Positions 49,474 through 63,676 of a stretch of DNA of 64,000 nt are shown piece by piece. Origin of the DNA: Minisyncoccota bacterium. GTDB taxonomy: Bacteria > Patescibacteriota > Minisyncoccia > Phycocordibacterales > JBAYGS01. The stretch is from the NCBI GenBank assembly GCA_041666545.1, contig JBAYGS010000003.1:41086-105085 (forward strand), read 5' to 3'. Each line of letters begins with the position of its first letter. The stretch's first letter is position 1. The position numbers and the translations under genes were made by a program. The notes beneath the pieces are model-generated. The model was not told where the DNA came from. It saw only the letters and a list, made by a program, of their open reading frames with translations, and made no database searches.

Positions 49474-50469
49474 ATGAATCAAACCGAACTCAATCAAATT
49501 GCGGAAATTTATGGCCTAGGCCGAATTCAGTCGGCTGTGAAAAATGAAAAAGGCCTGGTGAATGATACCTACTATCTCAAGACGGACCGGGGTCATTTTA
49601 TGGCGCAAAAGTTAAATCCGATTTTCACCGAAGCAGTGGTCGAGGATCACGATGTCGTGGCTAGGCACCTTCTACTCAACGACTTTCTGGCCCCCAAGAT
49701 TGTGGAAGTCAGAGACAATGTGCTGTCGGCTAGAATCAGCGGCGCCCTTTGGAAAGTGTGCTACTACATCCCACATGATGAAGATGTAAAGGTGAGTGAC
49801 AAGACTGTGGTTGAGGCGGCCGCCGCACTCGGTAGATTCCACGGGATAATGGGCTGTTGCCCGCTTCAGCCGAAGTTTAAAATCCCAAATTTCCACGAGA
49901 CTCGGAAGATAATCGAGAAGCTCTCCCGCGTTTTCTTAAGTGAGGAGTATGCCGAGAAGGCGATGTGGGTGACGGAAATTTATCACGATATTGTTGGCTC
50001 AATCACGAAGCATTATTTGCCGACCGATTTGTCTCCGACTCTAATTCACGGCGATCCAAAGTTCGACAATTTTCTTTTTCGTGATGGGGAAGTAGTTGGG
50101 ATGTTTGATCTTGATACCGTGATGCTTGGTCACGAGCTTCTGGATCTGGGCGATGCCTTTCGCAGTTGGTGTCGTGAAAGCAAAACCGAGTTTAACCTGA
50201 ATCGGTTTAACTTAGCTCTTAAAGCTTATCGATCGAAACATAACTTGTGGTGGCGAGGAGGAAAGCTTATCGGGGATGATCTGGTTAAAGATGCGGTGGC
50301 ACTGATTACCCTTGAACTGGCGGCCCGCTACCTCATCGACTACTTCGAAGAAACCTACTTCGATTGGAAAAAATATAAGTATCGCTCGCGAGCCGAGCAA
50401 AATCTCAGTCGCACCAAACGCTATTTGGCCTATTACCACAATATGCAGAAAGCGTTTGGGATGGAGTAG
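49474..50469 (+). CDS. phosphotransferase family protein (APH/choline-kinase-like)
   Basis: 331 aa. Brenner/catalytic motif HGDPKFDNFLF...GMFDLDTVMLGHELLDLGDAF is typical of aminoglycoside phosphotransferase / homoserine kinase II-like kinases. Confidence 0.7.
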   Translation: MNQTELNQIAEIYGLGRIQSAVKNEKGLVNDTYYLKTDRGHFMAQKLNPIFTEAVVEDHDVVARHLLLNDFLAPKIVEVRDNVLSARISGALWKVCYYIPHDEDVKVSDKTVVEAAAALGRFHGIMGCCPLQPKFKIPNFHETRKIIEKLSRVFLSEEYAEKAMWVTEIYHDIVGSITKHYLPTDLSPTLIHGDPKFDNFLFRDGEVVGMFDLDTVMLGHELLDLGDAFRSWCRESKTEFNLNRFNLALKAYRSKHNLWWRGGKLIGDDLVKDAVALITLELAARYLIDYFEETYFDWKKYKYRSRAEQNLSRTKRYLAYYHNMQKAFGME

Positions 50470-50479
50470 GGAAAACAAA

Positions 50480-50990
50480 ACTCGTCTTGGGAAAGATGGG
50501 TTTTTTAAATCCAAAAGCCGAGATCTAATCTTGTCGGCCACAACTCTCGCTTTGCCGTCGCAAAGCTCGGTCGCAGCCCCCGCCTCGCGGCCTCGCCTGC
50601 TGGCTCGGCATCGCACCGCAAGGGTACTTCCAATTTCTAACTCGCATAGCTCGAAGAAATTTAGGTCGCTCCGGCTCGGACAAGTATCGAAATCGGACTT
50701 GTCGTCACAAATATTTTGTTCGCCGTCGCTCACAAAATTTTCTGACCACGCCTCGGCTGTTTTGCTTGCTCACAAAACATGCCTCCGGCTCGGACAAGTA
50801 TCGAAAAAAGCGGAGCAGTCCGCTTTTTTCTATCTTGTCCGCCCGGTAGGAAGTTCGACCCTTACAGGGTCAGTGCCCTGTTTGGATTTTTCTTGCGCGT
50901 GAGAAAGCTTAGAAAAATGCTCAAACAGGCTTCGATTCCTACACGGAGACATAACATGTCTCCTCGGGCGGACCATTCCGCTTCGCTACA
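50480..50990. repeat. tRNA-Lys 3' flank: mosaic of conserved hairpins (loop tcgccgtcgc), a duplicated ctccggctcggacaagtatcgaaa motif, and a partial tRNA-Lys 3'-end copy
   Basis: gtccgcccggtaggaagttcgaccc at 50838-50862 resembles the tRNA 3' end gtccgcccggtaggaatcgaacc at 50994-51016. The repeat ctccggctcggacaagtatcgaaa occurs at 50661 and 50783. Confidence 0.55.
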
Positions 50991-50993
50991 TAG

Positions 50994-51066
50994 TCCGCCC
51001 GGTAGGAATCGAACCTACGACCTTCTCCTTAAAAGGGAGCCGCTCTACCAACTGAGCTACGGGCGG
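50994..51066 (-). tRNA. tRNA-Lys (anticodon UUU)
   Basis: Hand-folded from the minus strand: GCCCGUAGCUCAGUUGGUAGAGCGGCUCCCUUUUAAGGAG...GGUUCGAUUCCUACCGGGCGG. Acceptor stem pairs. Anticodon loop CUUUUAA. CCA not encoded. Confidence 0.8.
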
Positions 51067-51146
51067 ATAAAAAAGTAGAAGAACTATATCAAAAAATAGT
51101 TCTTTGTCCAATTACTATAAACTATAAACTAGCTGCTACCAGTCGA

Positions 51147-51578
51147 CTAAAGCGGCAAATCAAAGGCGAGAAAACCCGGGCCGCTAACTAAAAGTGAAAG
51201 CAAGATTACGATGAGTAGTAAGTAAACCCGCTTATTGTAAACAATTGCACCGGCCCATCTCGGAGTTTTGGATTTCAATGCTTGAATTAGCAAAATCAAA
51301 ATCAAAACTAAGGCAACTGGTTGGGTGAATAATCCGATAACCAAAAAAATTCCGCCCAAAACCTCTAAGAGGGCAATTATTCTGGCCAGAATTGATTTTG
51401 GGGCCGAGAGACTCCTGTAAAGCTGGTAACCGGAATAAATAATAATCAAACCGGCCACGATCCGAAGAAGCGTCGGTCCGGCGAGTCCGTAGGTCAATAA
51501 ATTTGGAAAAATACTTAACATGGCATTATGATAGCATAATGAATAATCAATAACCAAGAAACAATAACCAAGAAACAA
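51147..51578 (-). CDS. DoxX family membrane protein (likely start at internal Met, MLSIFPN)
   Basis: 4 TM helices. LLRIVAGLIIIYSGYQL...GGIFLVIGLFTQ is DoxX-like. Confidence 0.55.
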   Translation of the reverse strand: MFLGYCFLVIDYSLCYHNAMLSIFPNLLTYGLAGPTLLRIVAGLIIIYSGYQLYRSLSAPKSILARIIALLEVLGGIFLVIGLFTQPVALVLILILLIQALKSKTPRWAGAIVYNKRVYLLLIVILLSLLVSGPGFLAFDLPL

Positions 51579-57185: not shown

Positions 57186-57218
57186 AAAATTCCGCCCAAA
57201 GCGGAATTTTTGTTTCGG
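57186..57218 (+). terminator. rho-independent terminator after rpsT
   Basis: aaaattccgc-ccaaa-gcggaatttttgtttc. Confidence 0.65.
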
Positions 57219-57355
57219 GTGGTCAGGAATATTTTGCTCGCCGTCGCTTGCAAAATTTCACGACCCTGCCCCGCCGGTTTTGCCTGCTAGCAAAACAGGG
57301 CGCTGGCCAGCATATGTATCAAAAAACCTGAAGCAGTTCATGTTTTTCTATCATG

Positions 57356-57427
57356 TGCTCTTGGCCAGAATCGAACTGGCATCGTTCCCTTCGGAGGGGA
57401 ACATCCTATCCATTGAACGACAAGAGC
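57356..57427 (-). tRNA. tRNA-Arg (anticodon CCG)
   Basis: Hand-folded: GCUCUUG-UC-GUUC-AAUGGAUA-GGAU-G-UUCCC-CUCCGAA-GGGAA-CGAUG-CCAGUUCGAUUCUGG-CAAGAGC-A. All stems pair. Anticodon loop CUCCGAA. Confidence 0.7.
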
Positions 57428-57604
57428 AGGATGAAGAGTTGGTAGGAGCGGCAGGAAATTCGAAACTTACAGTTTCAGTACCCCGTTGAGCTTATTTTTG
57501 TCGTCCGCCGAGGACGCAAAAATAAGCTCAACGGGGCTTCGATTCCTGACGCAAGCAAAATCGTTTGCTTGCTCCGAGAGCACAAACCTCGCGGACTCGC
57601 TTTG

Positions 57605-57676
57605 TGCTCTCGGCAGGAATCGAACCTGCATTTCTCCCTTCGCAGGGGAGTGTCCTATCCATTGAACGACGGGAGC
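57605..57676 (-). tRNA. tRNA-Arg-like (anticodon reads GCG)
   Basis: Hand-folded: GCUCCCG-UC-GUUC-AAUGGAUA-GGAC-A-CUCCC-CUGCGAA-GGGAG-AAAUG-CAGGUUCGAUUCCUG-CCGAGAGC. One acceptor-stem mismatch (C5-A68). The D-arm is identical to the neighbouring tRNA-Arg. Confidence 0.6.
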
Positions 57677-58950: not shown

Positions 58951-59237
58951 AATTTTAATTTCAAACACCCCGAGTTTCAATAACTCGGGGTGTTTCGTTT
59001 TGGCGGAGGGAGTGAGACCACGAGTACGTTTTTTGAAACTTACAGTTTCAGGCAGCTTTTCCGAAAACTGCACTTGGATTTTAATAGTCGCTTTGCTTCT
59101 TTAAGATCTCGGCGTACCCCGATTGGTTCGCGAAGCGCTCGGCTCAATCGGGCTTCGAATCTCACACGCAGTGCTCCCCAGCACTGCTCTCCTCCGCTTA
59201 ACAAAAAATGGCACTTGCGTGCACATTTTTGTAAAAG

Positions 59238-59324
59238 CGGAGGAGGTGAGATTCGAACTCACGGCCCCCTTACGAGGGCTCCGGTTTTCAAGACCGGTGC
59301 ATTCGACCACTCTGCCACTCCTCC
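59238..59324 (-). tRNA. tRNA-Ser (anticodon UGA)
   Basis: Hand-folded: GGAGGAG-UG-GCAGAGUGGUCGAAUGC-ACCGG-UCUUGAAA(ACCGG)-long variable arm GCCCUCGUAAGGGGGC-GUGAGUUCGAAUCUCAC-CUCCUCC-G. Confidence 0.8.
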
Positions 59325-63578: not shown

Positions 63579-63650
63579 GCCCCTGTAGTTTAATGGATAG
63601 AACTGTGGACTTCTAAGCCACTAATGGGTGTTCGATTCACCCCGGGGGCA
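63579..63650 (+). tRNA. tRNA-Arg (anticodon UCU)
   Basis: Hand-folded: GCCCCUG-UA-GUUU-AAUGGAUA-GAAC-U-GUGGA-CUUCUAA-GCCAC-UAAUG-GGUGUUCGAUUCACC-CCGGGGGC-A. One U-G pair in the acceptor stem and one A-G at the base of the anticodon stem. Confidence 0.7.
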
Positions 63651-63676
63651 CAGAATTAGCTGTATATAAATTAAGT

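Follow-up and report, generated by a model that had tools for sequence, protein, structure and literature searches.

We analyzed a 64,000-nucleotide (nt) stretch of DNA from a Minisyncoccota bacterium (the window), in which a first-pass annotation had marked structured repeats downstream of a tRNA-Lys gene. We are confident that these 500 bp are one intact and two decayed units of an uncatalogued family of structured modules that sit directly 3' of many tRNA genes, on the tRNA strand, in Paceibacteria-type Patescibacteria. With the same confidence, we describe each unit as consisting, in order, of a hairpin serving as spacer, X' (complementary to the trailer and to the 3' strand of the acceptor), a hairpin of fixed length termed hp1 together with antiT (complementary to the T loop and the 3' side of the T stem), a core of class A or class B, and X2 (the tRNA 3' end in direct copy). 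Here X stands for local sequence (at tRNA-Lys, the T loop and all that lies 3' of it within the tRNA) and X' for the same sequence in reverse complement. As to function, we tentatively favor a new cis-acting structured RNA in tRNA 3' trailers, in which the 3' third of the tRNA and its downstream copy would take part in two mutually exclusive pairings.

tRNA genes were called with ARAGORN and Rfam RF00005, and ARAGORN placed five in the window. Counts of class-A modules outside the window come from at least 120 loci in a one-genome-per-species collection (given below as L numbers), the locus set being the matches of a pattern built from the class-A core. Two covariance models (CMs) were used. 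CM R1, for class A, was built from 116 copies, and its family count was taken at E < 1e-3. CM R2, for class B, was built from other genomes only and is essentially a sequence model because RNAalifold gave a poor consensus for class B (3 bp). At gathering score, Rfam returned only tRNAs across the window, and at E ≤ 10 it returned nothing relevant within 50400-51150. Literature searches, sequence strings included, turned up no earlier description of the module.

Organization of the tRNA-Lys array

Read on the tRNA strand, the array is a repeated (X – spacer hairpin – X' – core) series that closes with a final X. Its parts are as follows.

50993..51066, minus strand: tRNA-Lys(UUU), called by ARAGORN and by Rfam RF00005 (72.4 bits); CCA is not encoded
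51013-50993, minus strand: repeat X1, the last 21 nt of tRNA-Lys, TTCGATTCCTAC CGGGCGG A C (from the sequence)
50974..50992, minus strand: spacer of type 2, 19 nt, no T-run, with a GCGAAGC mini-hairpin; the loop of the X1:X' palindrome (sequence, fold)
50965..50973, minus strand: X'acc, GTCCGCCCG, the reverse complement of the acceptor 3' strand, the discriminator, and C (inverted repeat I7)
50945..50963, minus strand: hp1, the hairpin GGAGACAT-gtt-ATGTCTCC, 8 bp, at the meeting point of the acceptor and T-stem complements (sequence, fold)
50931..50942, minus strand: antiT, GTAGGAATCGAA, the exact reverse complement of the tRNA T loop and T-stem 3' strand; 5' strand of helix P1 (inverted repeat I6)
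50857..50930, minus strand: class-A core, a three-way junction (CM R1 match at 50842-50944, 78.9 bits, E = 3e-20)
50837..50858, minus strand: X2, TCGAACTTCCTACCGGGCGGAC, a direct copy of the tRNA 3' end; 3' strand of P1 (direct repeat D2)
50803..50830, minus strand: terminator-like hairpin GAAAAAAGCGGA-ctgc-TCCGCTTTTTTC (I2, fold)
50697..50802, minus strand: class-B unit 1 (CM R2 match at 50699-50756, E = 3e-5)
50529..50696, minus strand: class-B unit 2, a degenerate unit that carries insertions (assigned by eye from a comparison with unit 1; below the CM R2 threshold)

All four features noted in the first pass proved to be real and nonrandom, with coordinates that were off by 1 to 8 nt. The reported partial copy of the tRNA 3' end contains the 16-mer TTCCTACCGGGCGGAC, which is exact at 50837-50852 and 50993-51008 (minus strand) and occurs exactly twice. 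When up to three mismatches were allowed, there were three matches compared to 0.43 expected, and none of 100 shuffled sequences reached three. This direct copy begins at 50837 instead of 50838 and, with the TCGA of the T loop, covers 50837-50858. A second piece had been described as T-arm-like (plus strand, about 50929-50962). At 12 of 12 positions, it reads as an inverted copy of the T loop and the 3' strand of the T stem (I6). It is joined to the 8-bp hairpin, and beside it lie 9 nt that are reverse complementary to the 3' strand of the acceptor (I7). The duplicated 24-mer CTCCGGCTCGGACAAGTATCGAAA is indeed an exact pair (0.00 expected), but its copies lie at 50669-50692 and 50783-50806, and the position of 50661 given for one of them was wrong. 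The hairpin with the loop tcgccgtcgc, which was said to recur beside tRNA-Arg, does so as a 31-nt motif at 50710-50740 and 57228-57258 (0.00 expected). Both full copies lie just 3' of tRNA genes, and the window holds no further 31-nt copy away from them; the 10-mer tcgccgtcgc itself, with up to one mismatch, has 11 matches in the window compared to 3.0 expected. Neither of the two outcomes named in the first pass as refutations, a partial copy no better than shuffled sequence and a hairpin motif just as frequent away from tRNAs, was observed.

Within the intact unit, the J segment GAAG of the Lys core overlaps antiT, such that its G, A, and A (50933-50931) lie in antiT and its final G (50930) lies in the core. 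The core further comprises P3 (CCTGTTTG/CAAACAGG), a bulged A, a G-C pair, and an AT-rich P4, and then the J segment GG(G)YACUG and P5 with the pentaloop UGUAA. Spacer loops of the GCGNAGC type were also seen in other loci. A small open reading frame (ORF) that spans the module (50830-50976) was dismissed on the basis of indels and hairpin covariation.

Past X2, the hairpin at 50803..50830 is probably the original terminator of tRNA-Lys, and it doubles as the spacer of the first class-B unit; a homologous hairpin (GATAGAAAAA..TTTTTTGATAC) is found directly 3' of tRNA-Arg(CCG). Class-B unit 1 opens with the X' ACTTGTC (inside the 24-mer at 50783-50806), CGAGCCGGAGG, a hairpin, and GAGGCGTGGTCAG, and ends with an AT hairpin with the loop GAGCGACGGCGA (the tcgccgtcgc hairpin), TTGTGAC, and the X copy GACAAGT. 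Units homologous to it were identified in L112, L103, L116, and others. Class-B unit 2 retains the other 24-mer copy (50669-50692), a ttgccgtcgc hairpin (about 50546-50570), and a terminal X copy, GACAAGA (50529-50535). Both class-B units thus open with the 24-mer, and the class-B core differs from that of class A.

The class-A core covaries as a folded strand

The class-A core is about 75 nt long within a module of about 150 nt. It consists of P1 (antiT paired with the T part of X2), an 8-bp P3, a bulged A with a G-C pair, an AT-rich P4 with the motif UGAG...CGAAA at its tip, and a 5-bp P5 with a UGUAA pentaloop. Across 116 sequences, 90.4% of the cells were paired, compared to 73.9% after shuffling. 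The covariation score was 0.439 against 0.147 for shuffled alignments (none of 500 reached 0.439), and slid controls gave at most 0.12. Double-sided changes in P3, P4, and P5 numbered 605, compared to 205 in the shuffles. The pair at 19:68, for example, was GC in 66 copies, GU in 36, CG in 10, and something else in 2. On the tRNA-sense strand, G·U pairs are frequent and A·C pairs scarce, which assigns the fold to this strand.

Selection by the search pattern could be set aside for 29 copies that lay outside it. In these copies, GAAG, GG(G)GUACUG, UUGAG, CCAA, and the pentaloop were still conserved, and the pair closing the loop switched from C-G to G-C around the invariant UGUAA. The hp1 hairpin showed its own family-wide pattern, with a stem of 8 to 9 bp in 99 of 142 modules, a loop centered on GGG or GGGG (e.g., CUGGGAG) in 54 of 142, and conserved flanking nucleotides, (G/A)A and G(U).

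Each module matches its host tRNA

We compared the tRNA-derived segments of each module with the tRNA directly upstream. antiT was complementary to its host tRNA at 12 of 12 positions in 63 of 103 modules and at 11 or more in 89. X'acc also tracked the host tRNA, matching at 7 or more of 8 positions in 67 of 103 modules, and X2 was identical to the tRNA tail at 13 of 13 positions in 42 of 95 (permuted controls, 0.5 to 1%). X'acc and an intact acceptor part of X2 did not occur together beyond chance: both were present in 28 modules, X'acc alone in 39, the acceptor part of X2 alone in 25, and neither in 11. Where X2 had diverged, X' was the better fit to the tRNA in 34 cases and X2 in 5, which argues that the antisense segment tracks the tRNA itself. 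X' ran on into the complement of the genomic trailer in 35 of 55 modules and into the complement of CCA in only 2 of 55, implying that it matches the gene or the precursor and not the mature tRNA.

Like tRNA-Lys, most tRNA genes in the loci have no encoded CCA; the base after the discriminator was C in 50 of 55, and the trailer is typically CAA or CAT. Two more conventional roles for X' were rejected. It is not the arm of an ordinary tRNA terminator, as tRNAs without modules rarely have an equivalent (8 of 8 positions in 7 of 97), and it is not the primer-binding site of a retroelement, as it fits the genomic trailer and not CCA.

Modules at the other tRNA genes of the window

Class-A core motifs occur three times in the window, each time directly 3' of a tRNA gene and nowhere else. 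One copy is that of tRNA-Lys. The others, and a further class-B unit, are as follows.

57448..57676, minus strand: tRNA-Arg(GCG) with a class-A module (CM R1 match at 57448-57550, 56.9 bits, E = 6e-14)
57205..57427, minus strand: tRNA-Arg(CCG) (57355-57427) with a terminator-like spacer and a class-B unit directly 3' (CM R2 match at 57217-57274, E = 4.6e-5)
59002..59324, minus strand: tRNA-Ser(UGA) with a class-A module (CM R1 matches at 59097-59167, E = 1.4e-6, and at 59022-59073)

At tRNA-Arg(GCG) (57604-57676), X'acc (GTGCTCTCGG, 57574-57583) and antiT match that tRNA, and the tRNA copy farther downstream has partly decayed. From the module end defined by nhmmer, it is 26 nt to the next tRNA (20 nt from 57448, where the CM R1 match ends), and for this reason we consider the module to lie inside a probable tRNA operon. 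At tRNA-Ser(UGA) (59237-59324), X'acc (GCGGAGGAG) occupies 59189-59197, hp1 59168-59187, and antiT 59154-59167. At both genes, therefore, the antisense segments have been rewritten to suit the host tRNA. The Ser module carries an insert of about 65 nt (59074-59140) between GGGGUAC and the P5 UGUAA hairpin. On the 3' side of P5, it has an extra small hairpin (AACGTACTCGTGGT) and a copy of the tRNA end, TCTCACTCCCTCCGCC (59002-59017), with a terminator beyond. The remaining gene, tRNA-Arg(UCU) (63579-63651, plus strand), is the only tRNA of the window without a downstream module, and an ORF-like region lies directly 3' of it.

Two further details were seen at these genes. The acceptor stem of tRNA-Arg(GCG) has a C·A mismatch (5' GCTCCCG, 3' CGAGAGC), and the extra small hairpin of the Ser module is an optional element (AAGCGTACTCGCGG) that is also present in L035, L039, L076, L025, and L026.

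Distribution across Patescibacteria

The core pattern matched at least 120 loci, nearly all of them Patescibacteria metagenome-assembled genomes by record label. Labels among the matches listed include Paceibacteria, Taylor-, Kaiser-, Nomura-, and Lloydbacteria, and a generic "Saccharibacteria." The organism of the window is itself labeled Candidatus Paceibacterota at NCBI. One match, L081, is a 2.6-kb contig binned as Pirellulaceae. Another, in the gammaproteobacterium Agarilytica (L075), was discarded as chance, as it gave no CM hit. CM R1 found 175 copies in the 120 loci listed. Of 158 nhmmer hits, 109 have a same-strand tRNA ending within 120 nt upstream, covering 34 anticodons, and most of the others are second tandem units or lie at locus ends.

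The family is wider than class A, since 29 of the 97 tRNAs without a class-A core carry antiT with other core types. Counting both (109 class-A and 29 of other classes out of 206), about two thirds of the tRNAs in the scanned loci are occupied, a fraction that is biased upward because the loci were picked for carrying a module. Seven modules lie between co-oriented tRNAs no more than 120 nt apart, the Arg pair of the window among them.

Apart from these counts, we read by eye a tRNA-Asp in L040 (3990-4420, plus strand) whose anticodon loop is interrupted by a long insert and which ARAGORN missed. A class-A module with matching antiT and X2 follows directly 3' of it. Group I introns at position 35/36 in the anticodon loop have been described for Patescibacteria tRNAs (PMC13011429), and the insert fits that description.

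Age and retention of the modules

In the variable columns of the core, identity was 0.56 between modules of different tRNAs within one genome, 0.50 between modules of the same tRNA in different genomes, and 0.47 between unrelated copies. With the first value only slightly above the other two, the copies are old, with some homogenization within genomes. Long retention is seen in the cca – tRNA-Gly – yraN neighborhood, where the module has been kept in at least nine loci even though the CCA enzymes are about 55% identical and the YraN proteins about 39%. The corresponding arrangement of a CCA-adding enzyme, one or more tRNAs with a module, and a YraN/UPF0102 nuclease-like protein was noted in L006, L019, L023, L027, L043, L056, L058, L087, and L089. 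Among the orthologous Gly(UCC) modules of L024, L110, and L095, the T stem differs, and antiT and X2 change along with it (read by eye).

Predicted folds and a possible cis-acting role

The folds reported here rest on nearest-neighbor energies and ignore tRNA tertiary structure and folding kinetics. Alone, the Lys module folds as P0 - hp1 - P1 - P3/P4 - P5 at −65.5 kcal/mol (z = −5.7). When tRNA-Lys and its module were folded together, the minimum free energy (MFE) structure was strand swapped, with the tRNA 3' third paired to X' and the acceptor 5' and T 5' strands paired to X2. This fold has −121.9 kcal/mol, compared to −107 kcal/mol for the native tRNA with a closed module. The same exchange was predicted across the family: in MFE folds, the tRNA 3' third paired with X' in 101 of 108 transcripts, and the acceptor 5' strand paired with X2 in 72 of 108.

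Under the reading that we favor, the module would be transcribed within the tRNA precursor or in read-through transcripts and would act in cis as RNA. In state 1, X' would pair with X2 and close P1, leaving the tRNA free to fold. In state 2, X' would instead pair with the tRNA's own 3' third. The two states would be mutually exclusive and related by strand exchange, and in state 2, X2 could substitute for the 3' half of the tRNA in the acceptor and T stems. The core, with its aptamer- or ribozyme-like invariant junction and loop nucleotides, may bind a factor or catalyze a step. In doing so, it would determine which of the two states dominates and, with it, whether folding, 3' processing, and CCA addition can make use of the tRNA 3' third.

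A cis-acting element of this kind would be expected to come as a single copy per tRNA gene, matched to its host. We rank this reading first because of the aptamer- or ribozyme-like conservation, the one-copy-per-tRNA logic, the complementarity to the precursor in particular, and the long retention in streamlined genomes. This reading, which we consider the most likely one, also lies close to a suggestion made in the first pass, a putative dedicated tRNA 3'-processing or termination structure. A bolder version, in which a ligand- or protein-responsive aptamer or a small ribozyme decides tRNA precursor maturation or swaps in the spare 3' half as part of a clade-wide cis RNA system, is in our estimate unlikely. 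If true, it would amount to an RNA-based layer of control or repair for tRNA supply in bacteria with minimal sets of regulatory proteins.

Weighing the alternatives

Several observations weigh against a cis-acting RNA. A terminator-like hairpin with a T-run is present in 56 of 109 spacers between tRNA and module, compared to a background of 17%, so many transcripts would stop before X'. Tying up the tRNA 3' third appears to do more harm than good, and mini-loops of the GCGNAGC kind are well known as stable hairpins in DNA. In the X1:X' helix, mismatches showed no significant excess of G·U over A·C (18 versus 10, p = 0.18), so this helix could be kept at the DNA level. The concerted change of X1, X', and X2 in the orthologous modules of L024, L110, and L095 is easier to obtain by templated DNA copying than by four independent substitutions, and modules of one genome resemble each other a little more than they do their orthologues (0.56 versus 0.50). 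Tandem units (identical ones in L112, L102, L071, L066, and L072), decayed distal units, and core classes that differ at the same tRNA type between genomes resemble mobile DNA. What follows X2 at tRNA-Lys looks like the original trailer and terminator and is homologous to the sequence 3' of tRNA-Arg(CCG). The terminators, tandem arrays, class differences, trailer-like sequence after X2, and lack of significant G·U bias are all consistent with the entry of a compact element through recombination at the 3' end of the tRNA. We rank such a gene-less (non-autonomous) integrative mini-element, active as a folded single strand, second, and regard it as doubtful. A small circle or strand composed of X, spacer, X', and core, in which X':X mimics the T-loop-to-3'-end duplex of the tRNA gene, would recombine to leave tRNA(X1) – element – X2. 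Repeated events would build tandem arrays with the newest unit beside the tRNA, and the core would be the site for a recombinase or HUH-type enzyme encoded elsewhere. The (X – spacer – X' – core)n – X grammar and the block of identity from the T loop past the tRNA end speak for this route, as do the intact proximal and decayed distal units at tRNA-Lys. Moreover, half of the spacers give a terminator right after X1, as integrating elements do, and the strand asymmetry suits a single active strand. However, no recombinase (integrases included), transposase, or HUH family was enriched near modules (clustered neighbors, 120 loci listed), and IMG/VR viral contigs gave no strict hits and 46 loose hits that were all chance by covariance model. 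No long autonomous version was seen among the examined loci, no empty-site allele of the tRNA-Lys locus was found in metagenomes, and that locus was identical in other samples. X and X' must also suit one of at least 34 tRNAs, and a jump between tRNA types would produce chimeric tRNAs. The copies within a genome are old and diverged and do not represent recent bursts, and orthologous loci have been retained across deeply diverged, streamlined genomes. Finally, RNA tertiary structure typically goes with near-invariant junction and loop nucleotides and a constant hairpin length, whereas known folded-DNA recombination sites conserve little sequence.

Less probable still, and third in our ranking, is a stable small RNA that rides on tRNA expression and processing. 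Here, X':X2 would form a minihelix like an acceptor/T arm, with hp1 taking the position of the D and anticodon arms; the module would be cut out and capped by RNase P, RNase Z, and the CCA enzyme in the manner of mascRNA-type tRNA-like signals or tRNA scaffolds, and the core would act in trans, e.g., by binding a protein. The stable fold of the isolated module is in keeping with this, and its parts run in a tRNA-like order (acceptor 5', one arm, T 5', T 3', acceptor 3', discriminator), with hp1 and P5 loops that resemble U-turn or anticodon-type loops (CUGGGAG, C-UGUAA-G). Yet the X'acc:X2acc helix that it depends on is not co-maintained (the 28/39/25/11 split above), X' tracks the tRNA and not X2, and a trans-acting RNA needs no set of about 30 differently flanked, tRNA-matched copies per genome. 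A decayed attL/attR scar of a genomic island at tRNA-Lys, the first-pass suggestion, comes last and is highly improbable. A direct repeat of the tRNA 3' end from the T loop is the classical signature of such scars. Against it, merely 156 nt separate the repeats, and no integrase or island genes are nearby. The inter-repeat core recurs at two other tRNAs of the window and in the 120 loci listed, it covaries as a folded strand, and the inverted copy of the tRNA end, for which an att scar has no need, is constant in the module. The recurrence and covariation contradict a scar private to tRNA-Lys. The module may stem from a mobile element that recombined within the 3' end of the tRNA, but this would then have been a compact structured mini-element and not a decayed island.

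Genes beside the modules

The neighbors of tRNA-Lys are an APH kinase, DoxX, a SpoU methylase, and Fpg. The APH-family kinase (49474-50469, plus strand) stands beside the array, its nearest homologue is 55% identical, and several homologues are labeled Nanoarchaeota or Pacearchaeota. These labels suggest lateral transfer or mis-binning between ultra-small bacteria and archaea.

A protein family of about 226 amino acids adjoins clusters of module-bearing tRNAs in 9 of 120 loci (L003:2062-2742, L037:1113-1796, L040:3074-3754, L023:691-1440, two copies in L046, and others) and is multicopy in one genome. Its N-terminal transposase/resolvase-type helix-turn-helix is the only part recognized by Pfam, NCBIfam, and PDB. 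The C-terminal domain has an LLGIGLYWGEG motif and is possibly LAGLIDADG-like. The family could be a homing-type or mobile-element protein.

Implications and comparison with known systems

If our description of the family is right, many tRNA genes of Paceibacteria-type Patescibacteria carry a dedicated, conserved structured element that has so far gone uncatalogued. Modules on many tRNAs are a large investment for genomes of less than 1 Mb. Should the cis-acting reading hold, they would be a new RNA class with putative ligand binding or catalysis and a possible new form of control or proofreading of tRNA maturation by strand exchange. If the module were an integrative mini-element instead, it would be the smallest known kind to target tRNAs. 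In practical terms, partial and antisense tRNA copies could mislead the annotation of tRNAs and att sites in candidate phyla radiation genomes, and the class-A core offers a simple marker for the clade.

Among known mobile DNA, the attachment sites of tyrosine integrases at tRNA genes share with the module a direct duplication from the T loop to the 3' end, an intact tRNA on one side with a displaced copy on the other, and a frequent terminator after the intact tRNA. They differ in that the module insert is only 130 to 170 nt, holds no genes, contains an inverted tRNA copy and a covarying three-way junction, is found at many tRNAs per genome, and has no integrase nearby. Moreover, att scars would be expected to enclose unrelated DNA, while the module core is shared by three tRNAs of the window and 175 CM hits. 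Integron attC sites and the CTX-phage attP(+) are alike in their imperfect inverted repeats, which in the module may likewise function on one strand, in a stem that could mimic a duplex, in an order X1 – element – X2 that integration of a folded strand would produce, and in tandem arrays. By eye, without a pattern scan, the module consensus has no RYYYAAC...GTTRRRY boxes and no dif-like core. It also has no intI or xer neighbors and no ORF cassettes, and unlike in attC, its loops and junctions are conserved in sequence while its stem is tRNA specific. Strand asymmetry with covariation fits RNA and single-stranded DNA alike as far as sequence can tell. Miniature inverted-repeat transposable elements and REPINs (repetitive extragenic palindromic sequences arranged as hairpin-forming doublets) are likewise short, gene-less, multicopy, hairpin forming, intergenic, and sometimes tandem. 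The module, in contrast, has P1 arms that copy the neighboring tRNA, old copies (0.56 identity), and a position fixed to tRNA genes, and no association with RAYT or other transposases was seen.

Among RNAs, group I introns and trans-splicing ribozymes share the order of antisense guide, structured core, and sense replacement copy. The module differs in its core of about 75 nt with three helices, without a P3/P7 pseudoknot, an RF00028 hit, or U·G/omega-G features, and its tRNA is complete and unspliced. The group I introns of Patescibacteria tRNAs, furthermore, sit in the anticodon loop (PMC13011429). No motif of the hammerhead, twister, pistol, hairpin, or group I/II cores fits by eye, in agreement with Rfam, in which no ribozyme family matches region 50400-51150. 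Analogies to box C/D, H/ACA, and T-box RNAs were set aside for lack of guide or specifier features, as the module leaves no target nucleotides unpaired and its "codon" does not vary. mascRNA and 3'ETS-leuZ are single loci without antisense tRNA copies, and the acceptor-like helix of the module is not co-maintained; the module would nevertheless share with them an origin in tRNA-linked transcripts, and its acceptor/T-like helix could be a recruitment site for RNase P, RNase Z, or the CCA enzyme. Riboswitches usually occupy 5' mRNA leaders, whereas the module lies 3' of tRNA genes, has the tRNA itself as its partner, has no known ligand or Rfam family, and often has a terminator in the upstream spacer. 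With riboswitch aptamers it nonetheless shares a compact junction, near-invariant loops, covarying stems, and a P1 strand with an alternative partner, the switch of the module being a thermodynamic prediction.

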